This document shows positions 33,233 to 59,617 of a DNA stretch of 64,000 nt, one piece after another (within the stretch, counting starts at the first letter, position 1; every line of letters begins with the position of its first letter). The notes beneath the pieces were generated by a model. That model did not search any database and was not told the DNA's origin. It saw only the letters and a program-made list of their open reading frames with translations. This DNA is from Eledone cirrhosa. Taxonomy: Eukaryota. The stretch is from contig OZ024740.1 in assembly GCA_964016885.1 (NCBI GenBank), positions 15,438,001 to 15,502,000 on the forward strand. The letters are read 5' to 3'. The translations under genes were made by a program, and so were the position numbers.

Positions 33233-33276
33233 CATGGAACTCTTTTAACCATCTTTTGATTTTATTATATATTTTA

Positions 33277-34668: not shown

Positions 34669-34741
<73 letters not shown>

Positions 34742-34971
34742 CTTTATTTGCCACAAGGGCGCACAAGAAAAGGGGACAATACAAAGACATGCCGGGGATT
34801 TTACATACAGTCGTGTAAAAAATATAAAAAAAACAATTACAACAGTCGAAATCCCCAATAGGGAGAAAGCGCCACAAATGGGTTGTTTAATACCCCGTCG
34901 ATAGAACAACCCTCAACTCCAGGAGCGTATTGTGCAAGTGCTCCTTTGTTCCTTTTGTTCTCTTCTTTAAC

Positions 34972-37900
34972 CTACAGGCTTATAAACAGAGAAGGCCCAA
35001 TCACTCGGGCCATTTTCGCTTCATTCACCCACCTTTCAGTAAATTTACTGGGGTACAGTGCCACTCTCTCCACTCTGATTCTCCTTCTAAAGTGATACTT
35101 AAAGAAGGGAATCAATTGTTGTCCGGAGAGAAAGGCATCTGTCCTCAGTCCTCTCAATTTCGTCCAGCATATAACTTCTTTCACCATATCCACTGTACAG
35201 AGGAAAAACGCCTCTCTTTGGTTTTTGAAAGAGGCTGGCGGTTTGATCCTTACTATGGACTCGGCAGTCAACTGTATTTGTCCCATACGCGACAGCAGTT
35301 GTTCTGCATAGTTCCACAGGTCGGTTATGCCCGGGAAGTGTACAATCGCGTGCAGGACTGTTTCAATGTCCTGCGGGAATCTTGGACACGTCCTCTTGGA
35401 AGGATCCTTTGTCACGAACCGGTAGAGCTCCTCGGTAACACTGCCAGGCCAGGGACCTCTGGCAGTTGTCCATAGGTCCCGGGCGGAAAGTCCTACCAAA
35501 CAGACTAGTGAGCTCATCGTCTTCGACGCCCAGAGTCTCTCCGAGCACGTTGTCGCCCTTGTAACGTACAATCCCTCTATAGAATGTCGAAGTGCAGTCT
35601 CCACTGACTGCTGCGCCCGCTTGCCAGAGGACTGTGAGCGCCTGAGCGCATTCAATGTGCCAGGCGCCCATCGATTTCGGTCTTTTCTTCACCCAGGACT
35701 GCAGCTCCGTCAGCGAGACGAGCTGTGGGAAAGCCTGTCTCACAAACGGTGCCCACGCACGTTGGGGGTCGGTGAGGAATACCTGGAGTTGCCGCAACCT
35801 CAGCGCATGTTTGCGCACTATCAGCCACGGCATGTCCAGCCCTCCGTTGGAAGGGTGCTGACAGCAGACGGATCTCCTCACCAACGGAGCCTGCTTCTTC
35901 CACAGAAACTGGAAGAGCATGCGTTCCATCTTCATGAGGTGTTCACGGGGACAAGGCAGTAGATGACGGACGCTATGAAAGAAAGTTTTCGCCACCTTCG
36001 CTCGACCTTTTAAGGACAGTTTACACTCTGCCCACTTCTGGGTGAGCGAAAATACCTTGGCCGTGATATCGTTCCAGTTTTTCTCCATCTGGAGGTCTGG
36101 ACCGAGCCAGACCTCGAGCAATTTCACCAGTCCGTCTGTCCAGCGTCCAACGACGCTGTCGAACGTCATCTGTTTGCCTCTCCACGTACCGAGTTGCAAA
36201 CCGACAGACTTGTCCGGCTTTAGTTTTGCTCCCGTCAGCGTTTCGTATTCTTTCAGTAAGTTGCCGATCACCCCGATTTCCGAGGTGCTCGACACCATCA
36301 CCATTATGTCGTCGGCATAAGCCGATGCGCTTTGCGCAGTCCAGGTTCTAGAGGGATGCCCTGCAACAGCTCTAATTTCCGCAGTAGTGGCTCTAGAGTC
36401 AATACATATATAATGGAGGAGAGAGGGCACCCCTGTCGAATGGAACGCGTGATTGAGAACGGCCCCGATAGGTAGCCGTTCACCTTAACCCTCGAGCAGA
36501 TGCTGGTGTGCATCGCCTCGATCCAGCCTTGAAAACGGGACCGAAACTAGCCGCCTTGAGAACCGCTTCCAAGTATCGATGGTCGACCCTATCGAATGCC
36601 TTAGACTAATCCAAATTGATCAGAGCCCCACCGAAGCCGGGTTTACTACACACCATCTCTATGATGTATCGCATGAGATGGAGGTTGTCGTGTATAGACC
36701 TGGTCGGGATTGCACACATTTGCACTTTCCCTACCAGGTTCTCGACGACAAGCGCTAACCTCGTCGCTAACACCTAGGCCAAAATCTTTAACTCTGTGTT
36801 GAGTACCGTTATGGGCCAGAGAACAAGTCCGGCATACCTATGTAAAACTCATAGGGTAGACCATCTATACCGGGTGACTTGCGTTTCCCGCAGCGGCCCA
36901 GAGCGTCCCGTATCTCAGTGTCCGTGATCGGTCTTTTGCAGAACTCGGCGTCCGTGTTTGTGAGACGCGGCAGGCCATCGAGGTATGAACTAAAGTCCAT
37001 TGCCCCGTTCGGCTCACCGTCGTTCTGCTCAAACAGTCGCGCAAAGTGCCGCTGAAAGGCCGCACACATTTGCTTGGGGTCAAGTAGCACGCGTCCGTTT
37101 TGGTCTTTCAAAGACCGAATCGTGGACTTTTTGCCTCCGCCACTCGGGCCCAGCTGACAGTTTTCGCTCCTTCGTTTCCTAGAGCACGTGTTTTGCTTCT
37201 GATCACGCAGCCTTCGTGTTTCGCATCGAAGAACTGGTCCAGTGCCCTTCTCGACGCTAACACTCTAGCTGCGTTGCCACTTCTAAGTGCCTCCTCTACG
37301 TTGGCTTCTAGTTCTCTTTCTATTTTGTTTATCTCTAAGGCTAACTCTCTGTTAAACCTTATCGATTCTATTCTAGTTGCTTTCTTGAGAGAGTGCCACC
37401 ATCTATTGTTGACAATGGCTCCTGTTAACTGTTGCTTGACTAGTATACTTATCCTTTCACTGTAAACTTTACGTGCCGGCAACAACACGTTCAGCTTCCA
37501 GTATCCGGGTCCCTGTCTATGTGTTCTATCGCAGTCGACTAAGCAGACGACTAATTTGTGATCTGAATAGGCAACCATATGCATTCGTGGACAGCTTAAC
37601 ATCTCCTTGTCTCTTTCTCTAATGAAGAACCTATCTAAATACGATCTAGATGTCCCGCTGCGGTTTGCCCATGTCCACTGTGGTGCAGTCGGGACATCCA
37701 GTCGATACCTATCGGCCAGTTGGAATTGGCCGATTAAAGTTTTGAGGCTGTTGCACCCCTCTCTACTGGGACATGCTCCCACATAGTCCCATCGTGCGTC
37801 TAGGATACCATTCCAGTCCCGCACTAAAAGTAAGGAGCGAGACGTTCCCAGAAAAGATTCTAGACGCTTAAAGAAGTCTGGACGTGATTGCGATTTCCCA

Positions 37901-38242
37901 GTCTGGGCATAAACGGCCACCAGACTGAAGGCTCCACCTCCAATACTGTTCACATCTAGGACTACCAGTCTACCCTCCGGGTCCAAGTGTACTTGCTGTA
38001 TTTCGACGTCCAGGTTCTTTCTAAACATGACAGCCACTCTACCTCCACCTCCTGGCTGACAGAGATGCGTAGATCTCAAAGTCGTCGAAGATGGGGGTTA
38101 GTTGCTGCCTGTTGTGGATCCTGGACTCGGTAATGGCTATCACATCCATACCGTGTGACCTAACGTCGTTTAAAAGTTGGCCCTGTTTCCAGAGCATCCC
38201 TAGGCCAGGCACATTCACGCTTCCAACTCGTAAACTAGCCAT
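34972..38242 (-). pseudogene. Copy A ORF2 (APE-RT), disrupted, with internal deletions
   Basis: GSVNVPGL, YLDRFF, SDHKLV, KSPGIDGLPYEFY, IRQGCPLS, AYADD. Confidence 0.9.
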
Positions 38243-38283
38243 GTTGGTGAAGAAAAGTTGGAGAAAAAGGACGAAAGGTGCAC

Positions 38284-39839
38284 TTATCTTTTCGTTTCCT
38301 GGAGATCGGGTTGTTCAATCTCCATTTGGGTGCTGGATGGGGTGTTGGGTGGTGTGGGGAAACATTTTAACAGGACGCGGTTGATGGGTTTGTGGCAGGG
38401 GTTGCCTACGTCCTGTAAAAAATTATTTTTCAGGTCATTATAGGTTTCCATAGAAACCCTTATAAGTTTAAGGTGTGGAGACGATTCTGCTTTGACGAAA
38501 GTTTTTCCCTCCGTCTCCACCTTGGGGTTTTGGGAGATGACCTCCATCAAACTCTTGTTGTTTGTGTTGATGTATGCGTATTGTTGTTGGTGTTTTTGTT
38601 GTGTTGTTTTAGTTTGTTGTTCGTCCAGGAGTCTTCTTTTTATGATGGGTGCTTGTGTTTGGGGTGGTGTTGGTGTTGGTTTTGCTGGTAGGGGGATGTT
38701 TGACTGTGGTGTTGTTTGTGTTGTTGTTTTAGTCTGTGGTTGTGTGTTGGTGTTGATGATTGGAGTTTTGGGGGTTTTGTGGTGTCTCTTTTTTTGTTTT
38801 TTTAGATTTCCGCGGTTCTCCCTCTTGTTCACTTAAAGAAGGAGAAGCAGCCTCATCTGTCGTTGAATAATCATCGTCAGGAGTGTGGGGTAGGGGTATG
38901 TTGTGTGATGGTGGTGTTTCGGTGTGTGTGTTTGTGGTAGTGTCTAATGGAGTGGGTTGGGGTGGGGCTGTGTTCTTCAGGGTTGTTGTCTCTGTTTTTT
39001 CTGTTGTTTTTGGTTGAGTGGCTGTTTGTTTTGGTGTGGTTGCTCGTTTCGTCTGTTGTTGTACTTGTGGTGGTTGTGGTTGTTTTGGTGTTGGTGTTGG
39101 TAATAGTGTTTTTTTAATGATGGTGTTGTGGTGTGTTTGTGAATGATAGGAGGCTTTTAGGTGTGCTGTGCTACCACAGCGAAAGCAATGAAATTTACGC
39201 CCTTCTACCGAAATGTTTATTTTGTTGTTGTCGTCGATGACGACTTTTTCGGGTATTTTGGAGATTCTCTCCGGCCTCATTTGCATCAGAATCTCCAAAT
39301 CAGTACCCGCCCACCTTTGTCTAATAAACTTTTGTATCGAAAGAATCATATCAGTCTCTGGCTCTACGAAGGCAGCCGAAATCCACCAGATGTTAATGTT
39401 TGGTGGTATCTTTTTTTATTTTATTTTTTGTGTCCTTTTTCCCATGTATGTACGGAAAAAGGTGAATGCTTTTGACACCATTGGTGTCACAGACTGTTTT
39501 GGGGCGAGTGCCTCGCTTTTAAACAGTGCGGAAACACTTCCGTACTGTTTTCCTCGTTGGAGAAGTCAACATTTGCTAGAATTTCCTTCACGTTGGCTTC
39601 TATATCACCTTGACTAACAAATATCGGCTTTCTCGTTTTATTGGATACAGTCCTGAAGGTCACTGTCCTACGAACTGTGTCTTTTATTTCGAGGGATGAG
39701 TTAATTCTAAACCCACCCTTGTCTTCGAAAGTTACAAATTTTCTTCCTTGCTGGAGCATATCTCTTGCATTGGAGATGTCAAGATTTATAAAATCTTGTT
39801 TGTTGTTCACTGTTTCAGCGAAAGACATTTTTTGTGTGG

Positions 39840-39888
<49 letters not shown>

Positions 39889-40208
39889 ATCGTTGTTAGC
39901 CTCGGTGTTGGAAATCTCAATTCCCTGACGAGGTGAAACTTTATGTGTAGATGTATCTGTGGAGTTGTTGATGTTTTCTTTTTCATGTATATGTATATTA
40001 ATAGGTTTAATTTCTGTATGTTGTATGTTATTTTTCTCCGCTTCGACGTAGAAATTTTAAAATCTTCAAGTGGTATTTATTTCTCTTTGTTGATAGTCGT
40101 ATCCATAGCAACATCCATAGTAGCAGAAGCAGATATAACGTTAATATCTGCTTCTCTACCTCTCTCCTCTCTGTCGACGTTCTCTAGCGTTCTTTTCGAG
40201 TTATTCAT
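38284..40208 (-). pseudogene. Copy A ORF1 (gag-like), disrupted
   Basis: SFAETV, EGRKFHCFRCGSTAHL, P/T/Q-rich linker, ends EQPDLQETKR*. Confidence 0.8.
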
Positions 40209-40671
40209 GTTTTATAGTTGGCAAAATTTGATTTTTTAAAACAATTTTTTAATTAAATTTTTGCCCCTAAAGGGGCGAAAAATGGGATTACCACCCAGCT
40301 GACAATTCAGCTTGGGGGTTAATCTACAAAATGATATGTTTTTTCAAACAAATTGTTCTGGTTTTCGTATATAAATTTACAAAAAATCTTACCGGCGATG
40401 TTCCACGCGTCAGGCAGATAAAGAGATAGATAGATAATAGATAAATTTCTTTATTAGCCACAAGGGCACAAAAGAAGAGGACAAATACAAATGGGGAGTT
40501 TACATACAGGTATATGAAAATAAAACTATTAATAAAATAACAAATAACAATTGAAATCCCCAGTAGGGGGGTGGAGGCGTTATATAGGGGTTGTACACAC
40601 CCCGAAAAAATGTACAACCCTCATCTCCAGGAGCACCAAGAATGAGTACTCCCTTCCTCTTTTCCCTTAAA

Positions 40672-43600
40672 CTACAGGCTTATATAGAGAGGAGGGCTAA
40701 ATACTCGGGCCATCTTTGCCACATTCACCCACCTTTTATAAAATTTGCTGGGGTACAGCACCTCTCTCTCCATCCTGATTCTTCTTCCAAAATGATATTT
40801 GAAAAAACGAATCAGTTGCTCGCCGAAGAGAAAGGTGTCTGACCTCAGCTCTTTTAACATCGACCACCATATAACCTCTTTCACCATAGCCATAACACAT
40901 AGGAAAACCGCCTCTCCCTCGTTTTTGAAGGAGGGTGGCGGTTTGATCATGACAATAGACGCGGTGGTCAACTAGATTGGTCCCACCCGCGACAATAGTC
41001 GTTCTACATAGCCCCACAGGTCTGTAACGCCCGGGTAGTGTACAAATGTGTGCGCGGCTGTTCCTCGTCGCGCACGCATCTCGGACAGATCTTTTTCGAA
41101 AGGTCCCTGCCCGGGCGCCCGTGTCTGCAGAGCTTGTCTCAAACTGGTAGAGCTCCTCAGTAGCACTGCCAGGCCAGGGACTTTTGGAAGTTGTCCATTG
41201 GTCCCGGGCGGAAGGTCCTACCGAACAGACTGGCCAGTTCATCTTCCTCTACGCCTAGAGTTTCTCCGAGCGTGTCGTCGCACTTGCTGCGGACCAACCC
41301 TCTATAGAATGTCGAAGTGGAGTTTCCACTGATCGCCGAGTTCGTTTGCCAGAGGACTGTGAGCGCCTGAGCACATTCGATGTGCCAGTCGCCCATTTTC
41401 CTCGGTCTTTGCTTGACTCAGGACTGCAGCTCGGTCAACGAGACGAGTCGTGGGAAGGCTCGCCTCACGAACGGGGTCCACACCGGTTGTCCGGTGAGCC
41501 ATACGTGGAGGTGCCGCAGCCTGAACGCGTGTTTGCGCATCGTCAGCCACGGCATCCCCAGCCCTCCGTTTGAAGGGTGTTGGCAGCGGATGGATCTTCT
41601 CACCAAAGAAGCCCGTTTCTTCCAAAGGAATTGGAAGAGCGGTGCGCTCCATTTTGGTGAGCGTTTTGGCTGGACAAGGCACGGTGGTCAAGCGGTAGTA
41701 GATGGCGGACGCTATAAAAGTGTTCGCCACCTCCGCTCGACCTTTCATGGATAGTTTTCACTCGGCCCACTTCTGGGTGAGCGCAAACACCTTAGCCGTC
41801 ACCTCGTTCCAGTTCTTCTCCACCTGGAGGTCCGGACCAAACCAGACCCCGAGCAGTTTTACCGGTCCTTCCTTCCAGCGTCCGACGACGCCATCGGAAG
41901 GCATCGGTTTGTCTATCCACGTTCCGAGTTGCAAACCGACGAATTTGTCTCGGTTCAGCTTCGCTCCTCTGAACCTTTCGTATTCCCCAATTTGCGAGGT
42001 GCACGACACCATTACTGTCACGTCGTCGGCGTAGGCCGACGCCAGTTTTCGCAGTCCCGGTTCCAAAGGGATGCCCTGCAATAGCTCCAACCTCCGCAGT
42101 AGTGGCTCGAGAGTCAGTACGTACAGAAGGGAGGAGAGAGGGCATCCCTGTCGGATGGATCGCGTGATATGGAACGGCTCCGAAATGTAGCCGTTCACCT
42201 TGACGCTTGAGCAGATGTTGCTGCTGTGCATTGCAGCAATCTAGCCCCTGAACACGAGTCCGAAGCCTGCCGCCTCGAGCACCGCATCCAGGTAACGATG
42301 CTTAACCCTATCGAAAGCCTTAGACTGATCCAAGTTGATCAGGGCCCCACCGAAGCCGGGTTTACACCCTACTCTCTCTATGATGTATCGCATGAGGTGG
42401 AGGTTGTCGTGTATGGACCTGGTCGGGATTGCGCATGTCTGCGCTTCTCCCACCAGGTTTTTGACGACAAGCGCCAGCCTCTTTGCCAACACCTTGGCCA
42501 AAATCTGTAACTCTGTGTTGAGCAGAGTTATGGGCCGGAAGTTTCCTATGTCATCCTCCTTATTCTCGTCCTTCCTGACTAACGTGACTACGCCATTGGT
42601 CACAGGACTGGGAATTATCCCGTTCTGCTGCCAGTTGCAGTAGACCGCTCCCAGGAGACCGGAGAACAAGTCCGGCATTGCTACGTAAAATTCGTAGGGT
42701 AGACCGTCGAGACATGGAGATTTGCGTTTGCCGCATTGGCTCAGCGCGTCCTCTATCTCAGCGGCCGAAATCGGCCTTTCGCAAAACTTCGCCTCGCTGT
42801 CCGAGAGTCGCGGTAGGCCGTCGAGGTATGGACCGAAATCCATAGCTCCTCCCGGCGCGCCGCCGTGCCCGAACAGTTGAGCAAAGTGCCGCTGAAAGGC
42901 CGCGCACATCTGCTTCGGCTCACGTATCACGCATCCGTCTTGGTCATTCAAAGAACGAATCGTGGACTTGTTGCCACTTTTCGCCTCCGTCACTCGGGCC
43001 CAGCTAACGGCTTTGGCTCCCTCGTTTCCCAGAGCACGTATTTTGCTTCTGACAACGCAGCCTTCATGCTTTGCGTAGAAGAACTGGTCCAAGGCCGTTC
43101 TCGTCGCTAGCACGCTGGCTACGTTGCCACTCCTAAGTGGCTCTTCTACTTTATCTACCAGTTCCTTTTCGGTTTTAGTTCTATCTAACACTAATTCTTT
43201 ACTAAGACCTATCGAGTCTAATCTAACTGCCCTCTTGAGAGAGTACGACCATCTGTTGTTGACAATGGCCCCCGTCAAGTGCTGCTTAACTAAAGTGCTA
43301 ATCCGTCTACTGTAGGCTTTGCATGTCAGTAACGACAAGTTCAGCTTCCAGTAGCCGGGTCCCTGTCTATGGGTTTTGTCAAGGTTGACTAAGCAGGTCA
43401 CTAATTTATGATCTGAATAGGCAACCATGAACATTTGTGGACAGCTTAACATGTCCCTATCCTTCCTTCTCACTAGAACCCTATCTAGGTACGATCTAGA
43501 TGTTCCGCTGATATTAGTCCACGTCCACGGTGGCACAGTCGGAAAATTTAGTCGATATCTATCGGCCGATTAACTGTTTGAGGCTGTTACACCCCCTCTA

Positions 43601-44072
43601 TCGGGACATGCTCCCACATAGTCCCAACGTGCATCTAGGATTCCATTCCAGTCCCCCACTAACAGCAGGGAGCGGGACGTTCCCTGAAAAGTCTCTAGAC
43701 GTTTGAAGAAGTCTGGCCGCAGTGCCCCGGATGGGGTATAGCGGCCACCAGCCTGAAGGCTCCACCTTCACTACTGTCAACGTCTAGGACCACCAGTCGA
43801 CCCTCCGGGTCCAGATGTACCGTCTGTGTTACGAGGTCCAGGTGTTTCCGCAGCAAAACGGCAACCCCACCCCCACCTCCCGGCTGACAGAGAGATGCGT
43901 AGATCTCAAAGTCGTCGAAGATGGTGGCCAGTTGTCGCTCGCTGTGGATCCTGGACTCGCAAATGGCTACTACATCCATACTGTGCGACCTGAGGTCATT
44001 TAAGTGTTTGCCCTGTTTCCAGGGCATCCCCAGGCCGCGTACATTCACACATCCAACTCTTATATTGGCCAT
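40672..44072 (-). pseudogene. Copy B ORF2, disrupted
   Basis: GCVNVRGL, NFRPITLLN, LDQSKAFDRV, IRQGCPLS, AYADD. Confidence 0.9.
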
Positions 44073-44112
44073 GTTGGTGCTGAAAAGTTAAAAGAAGAGG
44101 AAAAGTAATCAC

Positions 44113-46107
44113 TCACCTCTTCGTCTCCTGGGGACCAGGCTGAACAATTTATATGGGGGTGTTGGAGGGGTTGTTTGGTGGGGTGGTGGCCTCTGGAGGG
44201 GTGGGGACAGAGATGTTTGGTGGGGAGGGGGTGTCTGGTGGGATGGGGGTGGTGGTGGGGAAACATTTTAACAGGACCCGATTGTAGGGTTTGACGTTGG
44301 GGTTACTTACGTCGTTAGGAAATTTTTCTTTTAACTGTTTATGTGTGTCCATGGAGGTCCTAATCATTTTAAGATTAGGAATTCTCCGAAGAGTGTGTAA
44401 AAGTTTTCCCTTCGTTCTCCACCGAAGGGTTTTTATATATGGTGTCTGTTAAAGTTTTATTGTTAGTATTTATGTAGGTGTAACATTTTTGTTGTGTTGG
44501 GTTGCTTTTTGTCTGTGGTTCTTGTGTGTGTTTACGTTTTGTAGTAGGTGTTTTGTTTTCAGGAGGAGTTGTTTTTGTTTGTGCTGTTTGCGTCGCTTGT
44601 GTTGGTGTTTGTGTGTTTGTTACATTTTTGTTTGTGTTATGTCTTTTCTTTTTTCTTTTTACTGGTCGGAAATGCTCTCCCTCATCGTCACTGGGTGACG
44701 ATGATGAGGCCTCATCCGTGTTGTTGGGGGAGGGGTACATTTTGGGGAGCTGTTATGTGTGTGGGTGTTTCTGGAGTTGTTTTAGGTGGGACTGTGTTTG
44801 TCGTTTGCTTTGTTGTCACTATTTTTTTTTATGTTGTTGTTGTGGTGATGGTGATTGCTGTGCTGGTGTTGCAGGTGTTGGCAGTAGTGACTTTTTTGGC
44901 TAGTTAGCCGAGGACAGGAAGCTCTCAGGTGACCCCAGCTTAAGCAGTGGTAACATGAGGGCCGCCTACCCTCGACCGAAATGTTTATGTATATAAGCCC
45001 ATCCAGCAACACACGTTCCGGGATACTAGCTATTCGTTCTGGTGTCATTTGGACCAGAACTTCCAGGCTAGTTCCGCTGAACTGGTCGCTGAAGGACTTA
45101 CCTACCGATATTATATAGTCTGTTTCGAGGTTTAAAAATCTACATAGTACCCACCAAATATCAATATTTGGTGTGATACTTTGGATTTTTATTTGCTGTG
45201 TTCTTTTCCCCATGTAAGTGGGGAAAAGGGTGAACAGCGGTGACACGATTGGCGACACAAAATATTTCTGTGCCGTCAATTGGTCTTTCATTAGAATGGA
45301 TAAACTCCCGTAGAGTCTACCCTTCTGAATAAAAGCAATGTCTTTTAAGGCATTTTTTAAAGCCAACTCAATTTCGCCTTGTGAAAGTCGGTTTTCGTGT
45401 TTTGTTTGAGATTGTCCTGAAAATCACAGTTTTCAAGGCAGCTTCTCTTCGCAAATCTGGGGGAGAGTTTATGGAGGATGATCCGGTCTCCCCAAAAGTT
45501 ACATATTGCTGGCGTTATTCAAAAGCTCATTTGCATTCGAAATATCTACCGGAGTGTAGCTTACCGTTTTCTTTACGGTTTGCGCAAACGATATTTTGTC
45601 GTTTACTTCCTTGTTGCAGTTATTGGTCTTGTTGTTGTTATTATTATTCTTATTGTTGATGTTGTTTTCGTTTTTTCCGTTGTTGGTGTTGTTGTTGTTG
45701 TTGGTTGTGGTTTTGTTGTCGTTGTTGTTCTTCTGGTTCTCGTTGTCACTGTTGTTGTTGATGGCGTTGTTTTGGTTTGTGCCATTCACAGTTTTCGTGT
45801 TGGTGGTGCTGGTGTTGTTGTCAGGGTGTGTTTTAAACATATCGAAGTGTTTCAACGAGGTGGTGCCAGCTGCTTCTTGGCTTGACAGTTTTACCATCCC
45901 TCCACCACCTCTGTCTAATTGTTGGTTGACAGATTTGATGTTGTTGTTGTTTTTGTTGCTGTTGTTGTTACTGTTGTTGTTGTTGGTGATAGCAGCAGGC
46001 AGACAGCCTTCACCTGCTACTAGTGCTGTGGAAGGTGAGATTAACAGCCCATCTCCACAATTCTCTGATGTGTTTTTCGTGAAGATGAGGTCAAAGAATT
46101 TGGCCAT
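44113..46107 (-). pseudogene. Copy B ORF1, disrupted
   Basis: SFAQTV, FPTYMGKRTQ, EGRRPSCYHCLSWGHLRASC. Confidence 0.8.
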
Positions 46108-46543
46108 TTTGGCTATATTCAAAATTCCGGTAGAAACTTTATGGGATTTCTCCGTTTTTAGCCCTGATGGGGTTATTATTTGGGGTTGCTACCACCTACA
46201 CAGTGTAGTGTGGCAGCTTATCTATAAAATGGTGTAAGAATGTAGATTCAGTTCATGCAATCCGAGATAGATAGATAGATAATTTTCTTTTTATTTGCCA
46301 CCAGGGCATCAAAAGGTGGGACAAGTACAATGGGAGGAGTTTACATAACAAGGCGTCCTCAATAAGGAGGAGGCAATAACAAAATATAAAAATAAAATAA
46401 AATATAACAAAATAAAATTTATAACAAAATCCTCAATAGAGAGGCGCCTTGGGGGGTCGCACACACCCCCGAAAAAAAGTGTGCAACCCTCCTCCTCAGG
46501 AGCACAGAGAGGGGGTGCTCCCTTGGTCTTTCATCTTCCTCAC

Positions 46544-49500
46544 CTATAGTCTGATGTAGAGTGAAGGCCCATTCACACGGGCCATTCTCGCCTCTTTCAC
46601 CCATCTTTCATAGAAACGGCTGGGGTGCAGCACCTCTCTCTCCATCCTGATCCTTCTTCCGAAATGATATCGGAAGAAACGGACCAGTTGTTGGCCAGAG
46701 AGAAATATGTCTGACCTCAGTCCTTTCAGACGCGTCCACCATACAACCTCTTTCGCCATGGCTATTACACACAGAAACACCGCCTCTCCTTCGTTTTTGA
46801 AGAGGGGAGGCGGCTTGATCGTTACAATAGACTCGGTGGTCAACCGGATCGGTCCCACCCTTGACAGCAGTTGTTCGACATAGCCCCATAGATCAGCAAT
46901 GCCCGAGCAGTGTACCAATGCGTGTGCAACGGTTTCCTCGTCGCACACGCATCTGGGACAGATCTTTTTCGAGGGGTCCCTACCCGGGCGCCCGTGTCTG
47001 TAGAGCCTTTATCGAACGGACAGAGCCCTTCTGTAGCACTGCCAGGCCAGGAACCTCTGGAAGTTATCCATGGGTCCCGGGCTCAATGTCCTACCGAACA
47101 GGTTGGCCAGTTCGTCTTCCTCCATGCCTAGGGCTTCTCCGAGGGTGTCGTCGCACCTGCTAACCACCAGCACTCTATAGAATGACGAGGTGGATTCTCC
47201 ACTGACAGCCGGGTCCGCCTGCCAGAGAGCCGTGAGCGCCTGGGCACACTCGGTGTGCCAGGCGCCCAGTTTTCTCGGTCTTTGCTTGACCCAGGATTGC
47301 AGCTCGGTGAGTGAGACGAGTCTGAGAAAGGCTCGCCTCACAAACGGGGCCCACACCGGTTGACCGGTGAGGAATACCTGGAGGTGCCTTAGCCTTAATG
47401 CGTGTTTACGTATCATTAGCCACGGCATCCCCAGCCCTCTTTTCGAAGGGTGTTGACAGCAGATGGATCTCCTCACCATAGGAGCCAGCTTCTTCCAAAG
47501 GAATTGGAAGAGTGCGCGCTCCATTTTGGCGAGCGTTTCCCTTGGGCAAGGCACAACGGTCAGGCGGTAGTAGATGACGGACGCTATATAGGTGTTCGCC
47601 ACCTCCGCCCGACCTTTCAGGGACAGTTTGCACTCGGCCCACTTCTGGGTCAGTGCAAACACCCTGTTCGTTACCTCACCCCAGTTCTTCTCCACCTGGA
47701 GGTCTGGTCCGAACCAGAACCCGAGCAACTTCACCGGGCCCTCCGTCCAGCGCCCGACGACGCCATCGGAGGGCATCGATCTGCCCCTCCACGTGCCGAG
47801 TTGCAGACCGATCGACTTGTCCCGGTTCAGCTTAGCCCCTGTAAACCTTTCGTACTCCTCCAGTAAGGTGCCGATCGCCCCGATTTCCGAGGCCGTCGAC
47901 ACCATTACTGATATGTCGTCGGCGTAGGCCGACACCGCTTTCCGCAATCCCAGTTCCAACGGGATGCCCTGCAACAACTCCAACTTCCGCAGCAGTGGCT
48001 CTAGAGTCATTACATACAGAAGGGAGGAGAGAGGGCACCCTTGTCGGATGGACCGCGCGATTTCCAACGGCTCCGAGAGGTAGCCGTTCACCTTGACCCT
48101 AGAGCAGATGCGGCTGCTGTACATGGCATTGATCCAGCCCCTGAAAACGGGTCCGAAGCCTGCCGCCGCTAACACCGCATTCAGGTAACCATGGTCGACC
48201 CTATCGAACGCCTTAGATTGATCCAAGTTGATCAGGGCCCCACCAAAGCCGGGTTCGTTCCCAACCCTCTCTATGATGTATCGCATGAGGTGGAGGTTGT
48301 CGTGGATGGATCTGGACGGGATAGCACATGTCTGCGCATCTCCCACCAGGTTGGCAACGACAAGCGCCAACCTCTTCGCTAGCACCTTGGCCAAAATCTG
48401 TAACTCTGTATTTAGCAGAGTTATGGGCCTGAAATTATTTATATCGTCCCCTTTGTTCTCGTCCTTCCTCACTAGCGTAACTACGCCCTTGGTCACAGCA
48501 CAGGGAATTCTCCCGTTCTGTTGCAAGTTGCAGTAGACCGCCTCGAGGAGTTCGGGGAACAAGTCCGGCATAGCTAGATATAGTTCGTATGGAAGACCAT
48601 CGAGACCCGGGAATTTGCGTTTGCCGCATTGGCTCAGCACGTCCTCTATCTCAGCGGCTGAAATTGGCTCCTCGCAGGACTTCGCCTCCCTGTCCGAGAG
48701 ACGCGGCAGGCCATCGAGGTATGGACCGAAGTCCATTTCCCCAACCGGCTCCCCGCCCCTTCCGAACAATCTGGGAAAGTGCTTTTGAAAAGCCTCGCAC
48801 ATCTGCTTAGGTTCAAGGATCACCCGTCCATCCTGGTCTCGCAAAGACCGGATAGTGGATCTACTCCCTCTTTTGGCTTCTGTCACGCGGGCCCAGCTAA
48901 CAGCTTTGGTTCCCTCGTTTCCCAGAGCACGTATTTTGCTTCGGACGATGCAGCCTTCGTGTTTCGCGTCGAAGAACTGGCCCAGGGCCGTTCTCGACGC
49001 TAGCACTCTGGCCACGTCGCCGCTTCTAATTGCCTCTTCTACACTATCTACCAACTCCCTTTCCTTCCTATTTCTATTTGAGGCTAACTCCTTACTAAAT
49101 TCTATAGAGACTACTCTAATCTCTCTTTTGAGAGATCCCCACCACCTGCTGTTGACGATGGCGCCCGTCAACCGCTCCTTAACTAAAGTGCTAATCCGGT
49201 CCCTGTAAGCCTTATTTGCCGGTAAGAACAAGTTGATCTTCCAGTAACCGGGTCCCTGTCTATGCGCTCTGTCAAGGTTGACCATGCAGGTCACTAACTT
49301 GTGGTCTGAATGGCCAACCATGCGCATTTTTGGACAACTCAAAAAGTCCTTATCCTTAATTCTAACTAAGAACCTATCTAGGTACGACCTAGATGATCCG
49401 CTACGATTTGCCCAGGTCCAGGTTGGCGCAGTCGGAAAATTTTGTCGATATCTATCGGCCAGGTCAAATCGACCGATTAACCCTTTGAGGCTATTACACC

Positions 49501-49981
49501 CCTCTCTATCGGGACAGGCCCCTACGTAGTCCCAGCGTGCATCTAGGATACCATTCCAGTCCCCCACTAATAGCAAGGAGCCGGACGTCCCTAGAAAAGT
49601 CTCCAGACGATGGAAGAAGTCCGGCCGCATTGACCCGAAAAGGCCGTAGGCGGCTACCAACCTAAACGTTCCGCCTTCACCACTGCCAAGGTCCAGAACC
49701 ACTAGTCGACCCTCCGGGTCCAAATGTACTATCTGTTTTGCGAGACCCAGATGTTTTTGCAGCAGAACGACAACCCCACCCCCACCTCCGGGCTGACAGA
49801 GAGATGCGTGCATTTCAAAGTCATCAAAGGTGGGGGCCAGCTGTCGCACGTTGCTGATCCGGGCCTCGCAAATAACCATCACATCTATACGTTGTGACCT
49901 GAGGTCATTTAGAAGCATTGCTTGCTTCCAAGTTGAGCCCAGGCCACGCGCATTTAGACACCCTACTCTTAGCATTGCCAT
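46544..49981 (-). pseudogene. Copy C ORF2: APE endonuclease, RT and C-terminal CCHC; single in-frame TAA at 47009-47011
   Basis: 998-aa ORF continues in the same frame into CPRCVCDEETVAHALVHC and 46544-46948. Confidence 0.93.
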
Positions 49982-50005
49982 GTTGGTGGTGAAGAGAAAA
50001 GGCAC

Positions 50006-51952
50006 TTACCCCTCTGCGTCCCGGGTATCGGGCTGCACAATTTCCATGAGGGTGGGGGATGGGTTGTTGGGTGGGTGGTGGTTTCTGGCGGGGTGGGGAC
50101 GGAGGTCTTTGGTGGAGAAGGGGTGTCTGGTGGGGTGGGGATGACTTGGGTGGAGGTGCCTGTGGTGGGGAGGCCTTTGTAGAGGACGCGGTTGATTGGT
50201 TTCACGCAGGAATTCCTCACGTCCTCTACAAATGTTTCTTTTAGGGATCTATAAGTTCCTATAGGGACCCTGATCAGTTTTAGGTTCATTTTTTTGTTTT
50301 TGTTGGAGCTATCCAAAGTTTTCCCTTCGGTTTTGACCAAAGGGTTGTTTCTGATGGTCTCCATCAGTGTTCTATTTTCTTCGTTTATGTAAGTGTATGT
50401 GTACTTTTCCTGTGTTGTGTTTGTTTTTGTTTGTGGTTCCTGCACGTGTTTTCTCTTTGTTGTGGGTGTTTTGTTTTCGGGAGGGGGAACTTTTGTTTGT
50501 GATTTTTGTGCTGTTTGTGCTGGTGTTTGTGTGTTTGTTTAGTTTTTGTTCATGCGGTTCTTTCTTTTTATTCTTTTCACGGGTTGGAAGGGTTCCTCCT
50601 CATCGCCGCTGGGTGCCGTCGATAGGGGTTCCTCATCCGTGTTGATGGGTAGGGGTATGTTTTGGGGTTCTGTAGTGTCTGTGTGTGTTTTTGTATTTGA
50701 TTTGGGTGGGGAGGAGTTGGGTGGAATATTGTTCTCTGTTGTTTTTTCTTGTTGTCGTGGTGGTGGTGGTGGTGGTGGTTGTGTTGTTATTTGTGGTGTT
50801 GGTAAAAGTGGAGTTTTTTTTGTCAATTGAGGACAGGCAGCCCTTAGGTGACCTCTGCTTGCGCAGTGGTAACATGCGGACCGCCTACCCTCAACCGAAA
50901 TGTTTATGTAGGTCTGTCCATCCAGAGGTACTCTCTGTGGGATTTTCATTATACGTTCTGGGCTCATCTGCACCAGAATTTCGATGCTAGTCCCACTAAA
51001 TATATCTCTGGAGGATTTTCCTACTGAGATCAGTGTCTTGTTCAAGGTCAATTAGGCCATAAAGTATCCACCAAATATCTACTTTGGGTCTTATACATGT
51101 AATTTTTATTTTTGCGTTCTTTTTCCCATGTATGTAGGGAAAAATGTAAAATGGGTGGACACAATGGGCGCGATGGAATATCTTTGTGCTGTTATGTTGT
51201 TTTTCATTAGCACCGAGATGCTGCCGAAAAGTTTGGCTTTCTGAATAAATAAAATGTTATCCATGTGGTTCCTTAATACTAGCTCAATCTCACTCTGAGA
51301 TAGTTGAGCTGGTTTTTTTATGCATTTAAAATTGTCCTGAAAACCACCGTGTTCAGGGCATTTTCTCTCCTTAGTTCTTGTGGTGAATTTATGCTAAATG
51401 ACCCATTGGGTCCAAAAGTCACATATTGTTTAGCATCTTCCAACTTTTGTTTCGCGTTGGTTAAATCCAAAAGTTGAAATATTTCCGTTTTTTTTACGGT
51501 ATCAGCAAAAGAAATTTTGCTGTTGTTGTCACTGTTGTTTGTATTTTCTTTGGTGTTTGTGTTGACATTTTTTTCCTTTTGATTGGTATTGTTGGATGTG
51601 TTTTCAATTTTTTCATTTTCTGTATTTTTTGGTGTCTGTTGTGGGCTGTTATTTTCATTTTTTGTTGTGTGAAATTCCCTTTCTTTACGAAAGGAAGTGT
51701 TTACTACATATGTGACGTTTGTGTTGTTGTTGTTTTTGTTGTCTTTATTGTTGCTGTTGTTGTCGTTGTTGTTGTTGTTTTCAGTTTCTTGTATAGTTGT
51801 GGCTACATCAAGTTGTCGGTCAGCGGGTGGAGAAATTCTTCCCCTGGCTGACCTCTGCCTTTGGCATCTGCTGCTGTGACAGTGGCAGGGGGAAGCTGTG
51901 AGTATGACTTCCCTTTTCTTCCTTTGAATGTTGGTGAAGATGCTTCAGCCAT
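50006..51952 (-). pseudogene. Copy C ORF1, disrupted
   Basis: EGRRSACYHCASRGHLRAAC; ends MEIVQPDTRDAEG*. Confidence 0.8.
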
Positions 51953-52420
51953 TTTTATCAAAATAGGATTTTTCGAAAGTTAAATTTTTACAACACTATT
52001 TCGCCTAAAGGCGTAGAATATTTTGAGAGACTGACCAGATCAAAATTTGACCTGGCAGTCCCTCTACAAAATGGTACGAAAATGAACGTTTACAGTTCAC
52101 AATTTCCAGATAAATTTAAACGAAACTTACCGAGCGAGCTCAGCACATGTGTCCATCGTAAACGATATAGATACATAGATAGATAGATTTCTTTATTAGC
52201 CACAGGGGCGCAACAAGAAAAGGGGACAATACAAAGACATGCCGGGGATTTTACATACAGTCGTGTAAAAAATATAAAAACAAACAATATCAACAATCGA
52301 AATCCCCAATGGGGGGAGGCGCCACAAATGGGTTGTTTAATACCCCGACAATAGAACAACCCTCAACTCCAGGAGCGTGTTGTGCAAGTGCTCCTTCTTC
52401 CTTTTGCTCTCTTCTTTAAC

Positions 52421-55400
52421 CTACAGGCTTATAAACAGAGAAGGCCCAATAACTCGGGCCATTTTCACTTCATTCATTCACCTTTCAGTAAATTTACTGG
52501 GGTGCAGTGCCTCTCTCTCCACCCTGATTCTCCTTCTAAAGTGATACTTAAAGAAGGGAATCAATTGTTGTCCGGAGAGAAAGGCATCTGTCCTCAGTCC
52601 TCTCAACCTCGTCCACCATATAACTTCTTTGACCATAGCCACCGTACAGAGGAAAACCGCCTCTCTTTCGTTTTTGAAAGAGTCTGGCGGTTTGATCCTT
52701 ACTATGGACTCGGCAGTCAACTGTATTTGTCCCATACGCGACAGCAGTTGTTCTGCATAGTTCCACAGGTCGCTTACGCCCGGGCAGTGTACAATTGCGT
52801 GTAGAACTGTTTCAATGTCCTGTGCACATCTTGGACACGTCCTCTTGGAAGGATCCCTGCCAGGGCGTCCGTGCCTGTAGATCTTGTCACGAACCGGTAG
52901 AGCTCCTCGGTAACACTGCCAAGGACCTCTGGAAGTTGTCCATAGGTCCCGGGCGGAAAGTCCTACCAAACAGACTGGTGAGCTCATCGTCTTCGACGCC
53001 CAGAGTCTCTCCGGGCACGTCGTCGCCCTTGTAACGTACAATCCCTCTATAGAATGTCGAAGTGGAGTCTCCACTGATTGCTGCGCCCGCTTGCCAGAGA
53101 ACTGTGAGCGCCTGAGCGCATTAAATGTGCTAGGCGCCCATCGTTTTCGGTCTTTTCTTCACCCAGGACTGCAGCTCCGTTAGCGAGACGAGCTGTGGAA
53201 AAGCCTGTCTCATAAACGGTGCCCACACCGGTTGGGGGTCGGTGAGGAATACCTGGAGATGCCGCAGCCTCAGTGCATGTTTGCGCATCATCACCCACGG
53301 CATTCCCAGCCCTCCGTTGGAAGGGTGCTGACGGATCTCCTCACGGATCTCCTCACCAGCGGAGCCTGCTTCTTCCACAGAAACTGGAAGAGCATGCGTT
53401 CCATCTTGGTGAGGTGTTCACGGGGACAAGGCACGGCAGTCAAGCGGTAGTAGATGACGGACGCTATGAAAGTGTTCGCCACCTCCGCTCGACCTTTCAA
53501 AGAGAGTTTGCACTCTGCCCACTTCTGAGTGAGTGCAAACACCTTGGCCGTGACCTCGTTCCAGTTTTTCTCCACCTGGAGGTCTGGACCGAACCAGACC
53601 CCGAGCAATTTCACCGGTCCATCCGTCCAGCGTCCAACGACGCTGTCGGATGTCATCGGTTTGCCTCTCCACGTACCGAGTTGCAACCCGACAGACTTGT
53701 CTGGGTTTAGTTTTGCTCCCGTCAGCGTTTCGTATTCTTTCAGTAAGTTGCCGATCACCCCGATTTCCGAGTTGTTCGACACCATTACCGTCACGTCGTC
53801 GGCATAAGCCGACGCCGCTTTGCGCAGTCCCGGTTCTAGAGGGATGCCCTGCAACAGCTCCAATTTCCGCAGTAGTGGCTCTAGAGTCAATACATACAGA
53901 ATGGAGGAGAGAAGGCACCCCTGTCGAATGGAACGCGTGATTGTGAACGGCTCCGTTAAGTAGCCGTTCACCTTGACCCTCGAGCAGATGCTGGTGTGCA
54001 TCGCCTCGATCCATCCTCTGAACACGGGACCGAAACCGGCCGCCTTGAGAACCGCTTCCAAGTATCGATGGTCGACCCTATCGAATGCCTTAGACTGATC
54101 CAAGTTGATCAGAGCCTCACCGAAGCCGGGTTTACTACCCACCCTCTCTATGATGTATCGCATGAGGTGGAGGTTGTCGTGTATGGACCTGGTCGGGATT
54201 GCACACGTTTGCACTTTCCCTACCAGGTTCTCGACGACAAGCGCCAACCTCGTCGCTAGCACCTTGGCCAAAATCTTTAACTCTGTGTTGAGCAGAGTTA
54301 TGGGCCTGAAGTTGTTAATTTCGTCCCCCTTGTTCTCGTCTTTCCTGATCAGCGTTACTACGCCCTTGCCTGCAGAACTGGGAATTCTCCCGTTCTGCTG
54401 CCAATTGCAGTAGACGGCTTCGAGGACGCCAGAGAACAAGTCCGGCATGCCTATGTGAAATTCGTAGGGTAGACCATCGAGACCGGGGGACTTGCGTTTC
54501 CCGCAGCGGCCCAGAGCGTCCCGTATCTCAGTGTCCGTGATCGGTCTTTCGCAGAACTCGGCGTCCGTGTTCGAGAGACGCGGCAGGCCGTCGAGGTATG
54601 AACTAAAGTCCATTGCCCCGTTCGGCTCACCGTCGTTCTGCTCAAACAGTCGCGCAAAGTGCCGCTGAAAGATCGCGCACATTTGCTTGGGGTCAAGTAG
54701 CACGCGTCCGTTTTGGTCTTTCAAAGACCGAATCGTGGACTTGTTGCCACTTTTTGCCTCCGCCACTTGGGCCCAGCTGACAGCTTTCACTCCTTCGTTT
54801 CCTAGAGCACGTGTTTTGCTTCTGACCACGCAGCCTTCGTGTTTCGCATCGAAGAACTGGTCCAGTGCCCTTCTCGACGCTAACACTCTAGCTGCGTTGC
54901 CACTTCTAAGTGCCTCCTCTACCTTGTCTACTAGTTCTCTTTCTATTCTGTTTTTTTCTAAGGCTAACTCTCTGCTATACCCTATCGATTCTATTCTAAT
55001 TGCTTTCTAGAGAGAGTACCACCATCTATTGTTGACGATGGCTCCCGTTAACTGTTGCTTGACTAGTCTACTTATTCGTTCACTGTAAGCTTTACGTGCC
55101 GGCAACGACACGTTCAGCTTCCAGTATCCGGGACCCTGTCTATGTGTTCTATCACGGTTGACTAAGCAGACGACTAACTTGTGATCTGAATAGGCAACCA
55201 TGTGCATTCGTGGACAGCTTAACATCTCCTTGTCCCTTTCTCTAATGAAGAACCTATCTAAATACGATCTAGATGTCCCACTGCGGTTTACCCACGTCCA
55301 CTGTGGTGCTGTCGGGAAATCCAGTCGATACCTATCGGCCAGTTGGAATTGGCCGATTAAAGTTTTGAGGCTGTTGCACCCCGCTCTACTGGGACATGCT

Positions 55401-55867
55401 CCCACATAGTCCCATCGTGCATCTAGGATACTATTCCAGTCCCCCACTAAAAGTAAGGAGCAAAACGTTCCCAGAAAAGACTCTAGACGCTTAAAGAAGT
55501 CTGGACGTGATTGCGATTGCCCGGTCGGGGCCTAAACGGCCACCAGTCTGAAGGCTCCACCTCCGATACTGTTCACGTATAGGACTACCAGTCTACCCTC
55601 CGGGTCCAAGTCTACTTGCTGTACTCCGACGTCCAGGTTCTTCCGAAACATAACAGCCACTCCACCTCCACCTCCTGGCTGACAGAGAGATGCGTAGATC
55701 TCAAAGTCGTCGAAGATGGGGGTTAGTTGCTGCCCGTTGTGGATCCTGGACTCGGTGATGGCTATCACATCCATACTGTGTGACCTAAGGTCGTTTAAAA
55801 GTTGGCCCTGTTTCCAGGGCATCCCTAGGCCACGCACATTCACGGTTCCAACTCGTAAACCAGCCAT
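52421..55867 (-). pseudogene. Copy D ORF2, disrupted
   Basis: GTVNVRGL, GDWN, KSPGLDGL, NFRPITLLN, AYADD, CPRC..H..HC. Confidence 0.9.
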
Positions 55868-55908
55868 GTTGGTGAAGAAAAGTTGGAGAAAAAGGACGAA
55901 AGGTGCAC

Positions 55909-57820
55909 TTACCTTTTCGTTTCCTGGAGATCGGGTTGTTCAATCTCCATTTGGGTGCTGGATGGGGTGTTGGGTGGTGTGGGGAAACATTTTAACAGGA
56001 CGCGGTTGACGGGTTTGTGGCAGGGGTTGCCCACGTCCTGTGAACATTTAATTTTTAGGTCTTTATAGGTTTCCATAGAAACCCTTATAAGTTTAAGGTG
56101 TGGAGACGATTCTGCCTTGACGAAAGTTTTGCCCTCCGTCTCCACCGTGGGGTTTTGGGAGATGACCTCCATCAAACTCTTGTTGTTTGTGTTGATGTAT
56201 GTGTATCGTTGTTTGTGTTTTTGTTGTGTTGTTTTAGTTTGTTGTTCGTCCGGGAGTTTTCTTTTTATGGTGGGTACTTGTGTTTGGGGTGGTGTTGGTG
56301 CTGGTTTTGCTGATAGGGGGATGTTTGACTGTGGTGTTGTTTGTGTTGTTGTTTGTGTCTGTGGTTGTGTGTTGGTGTTGGTGATTGGAGTTTTGGGGGG
56401 TTTGTGGTGTCTCTTTTTTTGTTTTTTAGATTTCCGCGGTTCTCCCTCTTCTTCACTTAAAGAAGGAGAAGCAGCTTCATCCGTCGATGAATAATCATCG
56501 TCAGATGTGTGGGGTAAGGGTATGTTGTGTGATGGTGGTGGTGTTTTGGTATGTGTGTTTGTGGTAGTGTTTGATGGAGTGCGATGGAGTGGGGATGTAT
56601 TCTTCAGGGGTGTTGTCTCTGTTTTTTCTGTTGTTGTTGGTTGAGTGTCTGTTTGTTTTGGTGTGGTTGCTCGTTTCGTCTGTCGTTGTACTTGTGGTGG
56701 TGGTGGTTGTTTTGGTGTTGGTGTTGGTAATAGCGTTTTTTTATGATGGTGTTGTTGTGTGTTTGTGGACAAGGGGCTTTTAGGTGAGCTGTGCTACCAC
56801 AGCGAAAGCAATGAAATTTTCGTCCTTCTACCGAAATGTTTATTTTGTTGTTATTATCAATAACGACTCTTTCGGGTATTTTGCAGATTCTCTCCGGTTT
56901 CATTTGCAACAGAATCTCCAAATCTGTGCCCGCCCACCTTTGTCGAGTAGATTTTCGTATCGAAAATAATTATGTCTGTTTCTGGCTCTACGAAGCCAGC
57001 CAAGATACACCAGATGTTAATGCTTGGAGGTATGTTTTTTATTTTTATTTTTGTGTCCTTTTCCCCATGTATGTAGGGAAAAAGTTGTATGCTTTTGACA
57101 CTATTGGTGTCACAGAGTTTTTGGGGGCGAGTGCCTCGCTTTTAAACAGTACGGAAACACTTCCGTACTGTTTTCCTCGCTGAAGAAAATCGACATTTGC
57201 TAGAATTTCCTTGAAAGAATCTTCTATATCTGCTTGATTAACAAATGTTGGCTTTCTTGACGAATTTGACACAGTCCTAAAAGTGACTGATCGGCGGTTT
57301 GTGTCTTCCTTTATTTCAAGGGGTGAGTTAATTCTAAACCCACCTCTTTCTTCGAAAGTTACAAATTTTCTCCCTTGCTGGAGCATATCTCTTGCGTTGG
57401 AGATATCAAGATTTATAAAATCTTGTTTCTTGTTCACTGTGTCAGCGAAAGACATTTTCTTTTTTTGTGTGGTGTTGCTGTTGATGATGTTGTTATCGTT
57501 GTTGGAAATCTCAGTTCCTTGTTGAGGTGAAACTTTATGTGTAGATGTATCTGTAGAGTTGTTGATGTCTTTTTCATGTGTATGTATGTCAATGGGTTTT
57601 TTTGCTGTGTTTTCCTGTGTGTTATTGTTATTTTTTTCCGCTTCGGCGGTAGAAATTGTAAAATTTTCAAATGTTAATATATTTTTTTCTTTTGTGACAG
57701 TTGTATCTATGGCGACGTCCATAGTAGCAGAAGCAGATATAACGTTAATATCTGCCTCTTTCTCTCTCTTTTTTCTATTAACGTTCTCCAGCGTTCTAGT
57801 GTTGCTCAAGTTATTTACTT
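55909..57820 (-). pseudogene. Copy D ORF1, disrupted
   Basis: SFADTV, FPTYMGKRTQ, CFRCGSTAHLKAPC, ends EQPDLQETKR*. Confidence 0.8.
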
Positions 57821-58026
57821 TGTAAAATCTGATATTTTAAAACAAATTTTTAAAATAAAATTTTCGCCCCTACAGGGGCGAAAAATGGGATTACCACCCT
57901 GCTGACAATTGAGCTTGGGGGTTAATCTACAAAGTGTTGTGTTTTTTCAAACAATTAGATCGGTTTTTTGCATAGAAATTAACAAAAAAGCTTACCGGCG
58001 ATGTTCCACACGTCAGACAGAAAGAG

Positions 58027-58071
<45 letters not shown>

Positions 58072-59169: not shown

Positions 59170-59237
59170 CGGTTTCAACACACGTTTTCAGATAAAGAAT
59201 CTTACTAAACAAATTCAGAAACGAAATATATATATAT

Positions 59238-59541
59238 ATATCACAGCAAAAAAGAGAATCAGTGTTGCGACGAATGGAATTTATTGGACATATTACAATC
59301 GTTTCTCTGGCGACCAGCTCGAGGCACGATCGATGTGATGATCGAACCTGACTCTGAAAATCGCAAGGTCCTCAGATACGTCTTGATTCTACGAAGCAGA
59401 TCTGAGGACCTTGCGATTTTCAGAGTCAGGTTCGATCATCACATCGATCGTGCCTCGAGCTGGTCGCCAGAGAAACGATTGTAATATGTCCAATAAATTC
59501 CATTCGTCGCAACACTGATTCTCTTTTTTTTTCTGTGATAT
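59238..59541. repeat. Inverted repeat (~130-140 bp arms, 22 nt spacer)
   Basis: 59248-59377 is the reverse complement of 59400-59529. Confidence 0.95.
59400..59490 (+). ncRNA. Hammerhead core with a ~63 nt stem II; 5' strand of helix I truncated; mirrored on the minus strand at ~59288-59377
   Basis: CTGAGGA(59402)...GAAA(59472)-CGATTG-TA. Confidence 0.6.
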
Positions 59542-59617
59542 TATACTCTGCTCTAAGAGAGCATCGAGTGCTCAAACAGCCTACCGCATACGGACGCTTT
59601 AAGCATCCAACACCAAT

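Follow-up and report, generated by a model that had tools for sequence, protein, structure and literature searches.

Can a long interspersed nuclear element (LINE) carry a spliceosomal intron that its genomic copies retain? The question is raised by a 64,000-nt stretch of Eledone cirrhosa DNA (contig OZ024740.1, positions 15,438,001 to 15,502,000; hereafter the window), a microsatellite-rich region with an octopus-like repeat pattern, in which self-BLAST revealed four related elements of 5.7-5.9 kb, arranged head-to-tail on the minus strand between about 58027 and 34739, in the order D, C, B, A (Table 1). An earlier note on this DNA had pointed to a GT-AG segment of 67-69 nt near the 5' end of these copies as a candidate intron of the 5' untranslated region (UTR). 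On balance, we favour the reading that the segment is a real retained spliceosomal 5' UTR intron, or introns, of an L1/Tx1-like LINE, spliced from part of the transcripts, with the unspliced RNA as insertion template. This reading is supported by a GTAAG core that is invariant while its flanks vary, by YAG acceptors (Y, pyrimidine) that change between C and T, and by further donor/acceptor pairs in a sister family.

The window elements are L1-superfamily LINEs. Their second open reading frame (ORF2) matches the Pfam domains Exo_endo_phos, RVT_1 and, weakly, zf-RVT, and its best match in the PDB is human LINE-1 ORF2p (residues 13-863, E 5e-46), with R2 ranking behind. The CCHC knuckle of ORF1 is weak in C (zf-CCHC, E 0.002, under the curated cut-off); in an ORF1 of the sister family (L086) it scores over the cut-off (E 0.0003). 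Each of copies A-D has AATAAA at its 3' end, the copies are joined via (TATC)n or (TC)n, and all five array junctions of this one locus sit in such repeats. The name Tx1, given by the earlier note, presumably applies, by resemblance; none of the 47 rows of our tree is a labelled Tx1 reference. Membership of the Tx1 clade proper would fit the repeat targeting described in the accessible part of PMC4494074.

In A and D, the segment is 69 nt long and reads CCG/GTAAGA...CATTTTGTAG and CCG/GTAAGC...CACTTTGTAG, respectively (the slash marks a putative splice boundary), with CTAAT at 57958-57954 in D; in C it is 67 nt long and reads TCG/GTAAGT...CATTTTGTAG. Copy B starts inside the segment, its upstream part gone, and keeps CCATTTTATAG ending at 46222. 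The donor lies about 28-32 nt after the (TATC)n junction, the segment is AT-rich (70-78%), and exact intron loss was found in 0/4 window copies, all in agreement with the earlier description. The donor core GTAAG is invariant in A, C and D, each of which matches the GTRAG donor of U2-type introns, while positions -3 to -1 (CCG, TCG) and +6 (A, C, T) vary. The interior, which had been called not conserved between C and the other two, turned out to be partly conserved by a shuffle test, with 28/53 matches between A and C (11 of 1000 shuffles score as well) and 27/53 between D and C (85 of 1000). The conserved length (69, 69 and 67 nt) was confirmed, and it is weak evidence for an intron because the distance from acceptor to ATG is equally stable (111 nt in C, 114 in B, 115 in A).

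A YAG closes the segment in all four copies. A second YAG/G is found 57-59 nt beyond this first acceptor, in the loop of the second of two predicted hairpins, and its distance from the donor is 126 nt in each of A, C and D. The pyrimidine fraction of the preceding tract in A and D is 0.875 at the 126-nt acceptor versus 0.44-0.50 at the 69-nt acceptor; at the first acceptor of C and B it is 0.75. It may be the 126-nt acceptor, and not the one proposed earlier, that is used in the window family. Two hairpins follow directly after the first AG in all four copies despite differing sequence (single-sequence folds, z -3.2 to -6.2). With a sequence-based alignment of the four heads, RNAalifold returned a weak consensus of 10 pairs, 4 with two-sided change, at -5.7 kcal/mol, so that the homology of the hairpins rests on the single-sequence folds. 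The window copies are mutually related (identity at 4-fold sites, 0.60-0.74) and thus are not independent trials; by themselves they lend modest support.

Logan contigs were mapped to the window (X4, X1, X5 and X7; kind unrecorded or guessed to be DNA). Among the joints (15 listed out of 339) and loose ends (24 listed out of 2645), none falls at the candidate introns or acceptors; positions 58010-58044 and 52161-52199 are skipped, leaving about 14 nt of D exon 1, and this lack of junctions does not count against splicing. Position 57941, within the D segment, is spanned by contigs of both X1 and X4. A 91-nt skip at 51903-51995 was rejected as splicing, as its ends are not splice sites and the run is DNA.

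Stronger evidence comes from relatives. A scan of genome contigs found arrays of elements with 40-41% ORF2 identity to the window elements in a bacterial metagenome-assembled genome (MAG) titled Arenicella. From their microsatellite-rich flanks and 35% GC, we infer that these contigs are animal host DNA inside the MAG. In a quick tree of 47 rows, the window elements group with those of the sister family in a single clade (SH-aLRT 97). The survey comprised 16 contigs with matches; copies within an array share about 99% identity, so that the number of independent units comes down to roughly 13 subfamily clusters. GTAAG is present at 56 of the 59 full-length sister 5' ends, across about 13 clusters, with varying flanks (TCG, TAA, AAA). 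Viewed from the preceding element, GTAAG occurs within 145 nt after 56 of 67 3' ends; of the other 11, 4 are the ends of arrays, 3 precede a truncated copy, 1 is cut off by the end of a contig and 3 involve copies of a divergent family termed C13. Sister group II (16 copies) has TCG/ or TAA/GTAAGA (TCG in 15 of 16), a U-rich segment of 175-197 nt (74-84% pyrimidine) and then CAG/G or TAG/G; a stem begins on the acceptor G, as in the window, and the donor lies inside a long inverted repeat in 4 of the 5 folds shown. Sister group I (40 copies) has the donor AAA/GTAAGT. Conservation across families, which the earlier note had named as a check, holds for the donor, whereas a clear acceptor is present in group II and absent from group I. 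A CCTAG in group I is doubtful as an acceptor: it is paired with the region around the start codon, and the largest subfamily has TGG there. A metagenome scan with ORF2 alone gave no match, and one with the alignment gave distant relatives only, which served as controls; no relatives were found in viral contigs.

The MAG holds about 600 kb of apparent animal DNA (G001 contigs C3-C19; L124-L159 and L081-L121), with long head-to-tail arrays of intact LINEs and 89 ORF2 matches. In these arrays the next copy begins 10-20 nt past AATAAA, and the joints have neither poly(A) nor a microsatellite; self-targeting or array amplification, plus contamination of the MAG, is possible. In both sister groups, the start codon of ORF1 is paired within a predicted hairpin (5' UTRs of L149, at G001:C15 about 6590-6620, L134 and L144), for which translational control is a possible role.

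Donor motifs also recur at stop codons. In the window, D and C have their sole strong donor motifs, over 5.9 kb, in the 5' UTR and at the ORF1 stop; strong donors at one of these two places are 2/2 in D, 2/2 in C, 1/1 in A and 1/4 in B, which has three more. An enrichment in donor number was rejected, as the count matches local-shuffle controls (about 2 strong motifs per 5.9-kb copy); it is the placement that stands out. All 62 sister ORF1 stops found by probe have G/GTAAGT at stop +4, the next base being variable, and all 62 ORF2 stops have a donor just after them (GTAAGT in 34, GTGAGT in 28). An acceptor, (Y)nNTAG, is present in 61 of the 62 3' UTRs, about 240-260 nt after the post-ORF2 donor, and an AG-free run of 88-100 nt precedes it in 7 of 8 loci (background for runs of at least 90 nt, 0.4-1.4%). 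The C13 family (3 copies), more divergent and with an unrelated 3' UTR, has there CAG/GTAAGT, a 95% pyrimidine tract and TTAG/GT, spanning 144 nt; it has no ORF1-stop donor. In 12 of 13 sister units, 3 of the 3-4 strong donors fall in the 5' UTR, ORF1-stop and ORF2-stop windows (binomial 6e-5 to 2e-4 each, for windows chosen after the data were seen and for related units). Among distant L1-like control loci, GTRAG lies within 5 nt of the ORF1 stop in 1/19 and within -20 to +40 in 3/19, and a donor lies within 80 nt of the ORF2 stop in 0/11. As far as comparison of sequences can tell, the pattern of variation, with GT-R-AG fixed, flanks free and A or G at donor +3, and with C or T at acceptor -3 and G or A at -4, is the one that spliceosomal signals show.

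Inside the candidate 3' UTR intron of the sister family, an 11-bp stem with a long loop was predicted in 8 of 8 folds of the main groups (L086, about 3140-3215, and homologues). Some of the distant L1-like elements have a strong donor motif immediately upstream of the ORF1 ATG (L001:27, L007:18 and L021:133; L001 and L007 belong to one clade), and the splice-signal feature may be wider than the clade studied. A 37-nt mini-intron that would join ORF1 to ORF2 in frame, in B only (44079-44116, minus strand), was discarded as a general feature, being too short for a usual intron and with its AG absent in A, C and D.

Several observations weigh against a retained intron. Splicing is inferred here from sequence, with no spliced product observed. 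The pyrimidine tract of A and D is poor at the 69-nt acceptor, and CTAAT, a candidate for the branch point expected 18-40 nt ahead of the AG, occurs in D only and is not conserved. Group I, 40 of the 56 sister copies with the 5' donor, has no conserved acceptor, and a 5' UTR donor is missing from C13. In the window family there is no 3' UTR intron, and no AG after a pyrimidine tract follows the ORF1-stop donor in A, C and D; a scan for conserved YAG downstream of that donor returned the ORF2 stop TAG and numerous candidates under coding constraint, none of them decisive. A G after a stop codon is a favoured context, which accounts for part of the overlap seen in the window. Reverse transcription in cis of translated, spliced mRNA should leave intron-less copies, and exact loss was found in 0/16 group II 5' ends, 0/62 3' UTRs and 0/62 ORF1 stops, although, with array copies about 99% identical, these represent few independent events. 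Finally, according to the accessible part of PMC5860796, the 5' UTR donor of human L1 is maintained as a RUNX3 site, and splicing is for the most part avoided.

The main rival, overlooked by the earlier note as were the hairpin pair and the ORF1-stop donor, holds that GTAAG and GTGAGT are landing sites for the U1 small nuclear ribonucleoprotein without productive splicing, the acceptors being incidental or rarely used. Bound U1 might shield an A-rich transcript from premature cleavage and polyadenylation, boost transcription or steer nuclear retention. Such protection by U1 is established for cellular genes, and much here agrees with it: donors are more constant than acceptors; the 40 group I copies and the window ORF1-stop donors have no clear partner; AATAAA or ATTAAA is frequent in ORF1 regions (5 in D, 3 in C, 2 in B, 8 in A) and missing from ORF2; the 5' donor in arrays lies about 50-135 nt past the AATAAA of the upstream copy; and the surveyed copies include no intron-less ones. 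U1 binding would, however, have no need of the full acceptor signatures (tract, AG-free run and YAG/G) of the group II 5' UTRs and of two unrelated types of 3' UTR, and we regard this explanation as unlikely, while taking it more seriously than any other competitor.

Less probable still, and not exclusive with an intron, is that the motifs belong to an internal promoter or to RNA structures (transcription-factor sites, a YY1-like CCATTTT, hairpins) and resemble splice sites by coincidence. The window copies are only moderately diverged, CTCGGTAAG is common to window C and sister group II (9/9), which is more than U1 needs, and human L1 offers a precedent in the RUNX3 site over its 5' UTR donor (PMC5860796, accessible part). 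The YY1-like motif that the earlier note had raised is indeed present, as CCATNTT, in 4/4 window 5' UTRs and 30/40 of group I, but is not universal: it is absent from 16/16 group II UTRs and its position in A and D differs from that in C and B. Donors at both stops with A or G at +3, together with the 3' UTR acceptors, would be left unexplained. We consider it highly improbable that the 5' end forms a small RNA module, either resembling a spliced leader or bound by Sm proteins, an alternative suggested by the short exon, by GGTAAG in a small stem (C fold) and by a U-rich motif ahead of the hairpins. The Sm-site consensus, RAU3-6GR, is not found at the site in any copy, D and B breaking it where a 3' splice site may vary. 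The leader differs between subfamilies (16 of 28-30 positions match; 153-172 of 1000 shuffles are as good), the module continues into ORF1 with no separate short gene, and Rfam gave no spliced-leader or small nuclear RNA match, either in the window up to E 10 or on the sister loci.

Among known systems, the 5' UTR intron of Penelope appears to be the best functional model for the window segment: the element would work like it but is not a Penelope-like element (PLE). In the text available of PMC2377424, Penelope has a 75-bp intron 46 bp after the start that is mostly spliced and is kept in genomic copies, and its deletion abolishes protein but not RNA; that of PMC8557442 calls intron retention highly unusual, peculiar to PLEs and of unknown significance. 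As in Penelope (D. virilis) and Chlamys-3_cRei, a short putative 5' exon is followed here by a candidate 5' UTR intron of similar size (75 bp there), in the promoter region and retained in copies (PMC2377424, PMC8557442). PLEs carry a GIY-YIG endonuclease and pseudo-long terminal repeats (pLTRs); the window element instead has an APE endonuclease, two ORFs, an L1-type reverse transcriptase and no terminal repeats. Moreover, splicing is demonstrated for Penelope and proposed here, and donors at both stops are not described for PLEs in the available parts of those two papers.

The earlier remark that intron retention is not typical of L1/Tx1 needs qualifying, since a 5' UTR donor is conserved in human L1 and a few of its insertions derive from spliced RNA (SpIREs, about 2%), which are dead ends (PMC5860796, accessible part). 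The window elements share with human LINE-1 the superfamily, the conserved donor and, probably, propagation by unspliced full-length RNA, and structural sequestration of the donor has been proposed there. Human L1 splicing is rare, harmful and directed to variable, distant acceptors, whereas here consensus donors are found repeatedly at three landmarks and relatives show full acceptor signatures. Kibi and Koshi of the Tx1 clade are likewise two-ORF APE/reverse transcriptase elements in simple repeats, (TC)n and (TTC)n there versus (TATC)n and (TC)n here, and the available text of PMC4494074 mentions neither introns nor splice signals for them. The part available of PMC10294476 describes L1-Tx1 elements as common in molluscs and does not mention introns, and that of PMC1636488 reports introns of TART only in antisense RNA. 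Within a literature search that did not extend to Repbase entries, subscription papers and supplements, and in the parts of the sources that were accessible, no report of retained introns or stop-codon donors in invertebrate Tx1/L1-like elements was found.

How could a retained intron operate? The invariant GTAAG would be bound by U1 and joined to the YAG at 67-69 nt or to that at 126 nt, giving an RNA that, as in Penelope, would be the efficiently translated mRNA. Hairpins on the acceptor, and in one sister group an inverted repeat over the donor, may slow splicing and so allow unspliced RNA to survive. Unspliced RNA is the likely template for new insertions, as all genomic copies keep the segment, including B, which is broken off inside it; spliced copies, if made, would be dead ends since the segment would overlap an internal promoter or RNA signal. 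The ORF1-stop donor might yield an mRNA for ORF1 alone, through splicing to the acceptor of the 3' UTR in the case of the sister family, and the 11-bp stem of the sister 3' UTR segment could mark the template. Lying within 50 nt of each stop, the donors would, by the distance rule of nonsense-mediated decay, allow escape from it. The LTR elements copia, Evade and Ogre, and retroviruses, use unspliced genomic RNA and a spliced, gag-only mRNA, the same logic as that predicted for the ORF1-stop donor; they package RNA in particles, whereas LINEs normally copy the RNA that encoded their proteins. Tentatively, and with less confidence than we attach to the intron itself, we raise the possibility that this L1/Tx1-like clade runs a retrovirus-like programme. 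The full-length, unspliced transcript would then serve as the genome, and transcripts from which the 5' UTR intron, ORF2 (excised from the ORF1-stop donor) and the 3' UTR intron are spliced would serve as mRNAs; the placement of donors near stops would allow escape from nonsense-mediated decay, and stems over splice sites and in introns would mark the template.

Table 1. Coordinates of the LINE copies and of their candidate splice signals and hairpins in the window.
Feature	Position	Strand	Remarks
LINE copy D	52165..58027	-	ORF1 and ORF2 broken by frameshifts/stops; 5' flank (TA)n(TATC)n; from self-BLAST, ORFs and junctions; ends approximate
LINE copy C	46263..52160	-	ORF1 fragment with zf-CCHC; ORF2 with APE endonuclease, reverse transcriptase and zf-RVT; 998 aa open frame, then stop
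LINE copy B	40428..46262	-	5'-truncated inside candidate intron; from self-BLAST
LINE copy A	34739..40420	-	internal deletion in ORF2; 3' flank (TC)n(TA)n
D candidate 5' UTR intron	57927..57995	-	69 nt; alternative acceptor 57870, giving 126 nt
C candidate 5' UTR intron	52064..52130	-	67 nt; alternative acceptor 52005, giving 126 nt
A candidate 5' UTR intron	40324..40392	-	69 nt; alternative acceptor 40267, giving 126 nt
B remnant of segment	46222..46262	-	3' 41 nt, ending TTTTATAG; second YAG at 46164
D hairpins 1 and 2	57861..57927	-	first stem begins on acceptor G; z -3.7
C hairpins 1 and 2	51992..52064	-	z -6.2
A hairpins 1 and 2	40257..40324	-	z -5.3
B hairpin 1 and weak hairpin 2	46162..46217	-	z -3.2
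D donor AAG/GTAAGT overlapping ORF1 stop TAA	55907..55912	-	
C donor GGG/GTAAGT overlapping homologous ORF1 stop	50004..50009	-	frame assigned by homology; C ORF1 frameshifted
B donor GAG/GTGAGT overlapping ORF1 stop TGA	44111..44116	-	
A, homologous ORF1-stop site	38282..38287	-	+1 G lost by silent substitution; donor broken
TAG/GTGAGG directly after ORF2 stop, C only	46538..46543	-	

Elsewhere in the window, 1.3-kb inverted repeats (96%) at 13095-18060 flank a 510-aa ORF (15088-16620) whose look-alikes in Atlas carry HTH_animal/RVT_1, with a second copy near 28824-30964; by resemblance, this unit is possibly a Penelope-like element with inverted pLTRs. A different LINE, with Exo_endo_phos_2 and RVT_1 and far from the array elements in the tree, lies at 6696-9310 on the minus strand. 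Near-perfect palindromes of about 740, 310 and 225 bp are found at 63261-64000, 59233-59545 and 24499-24724, and a cluster of SINE-like repeats (SINE, short interspersed nuclear element) of about 190 bp, in both orientations, at 30956-33659.

The usual view of LINEs as intronless follows from their being copied from their own mRNA, and the known exception is the Penelope-like elements. The reading proposed here is testable with existing RNA-seq, since the junction coordinates are now specified, and U1 binding without splicing would also be an undescribed design feature of LINEs, as far as our literature search reached. A retrovirus-like programme, if true, would overturn the rule by which LINEs lack introns and copy the RNA from which they were translated. 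If the intron reading is true, intron retention would be independent of the Penelope mechanism, strict cis preference would be challenged, and the clade would have a simple route to ORF1:ORF2 stoichiometry.

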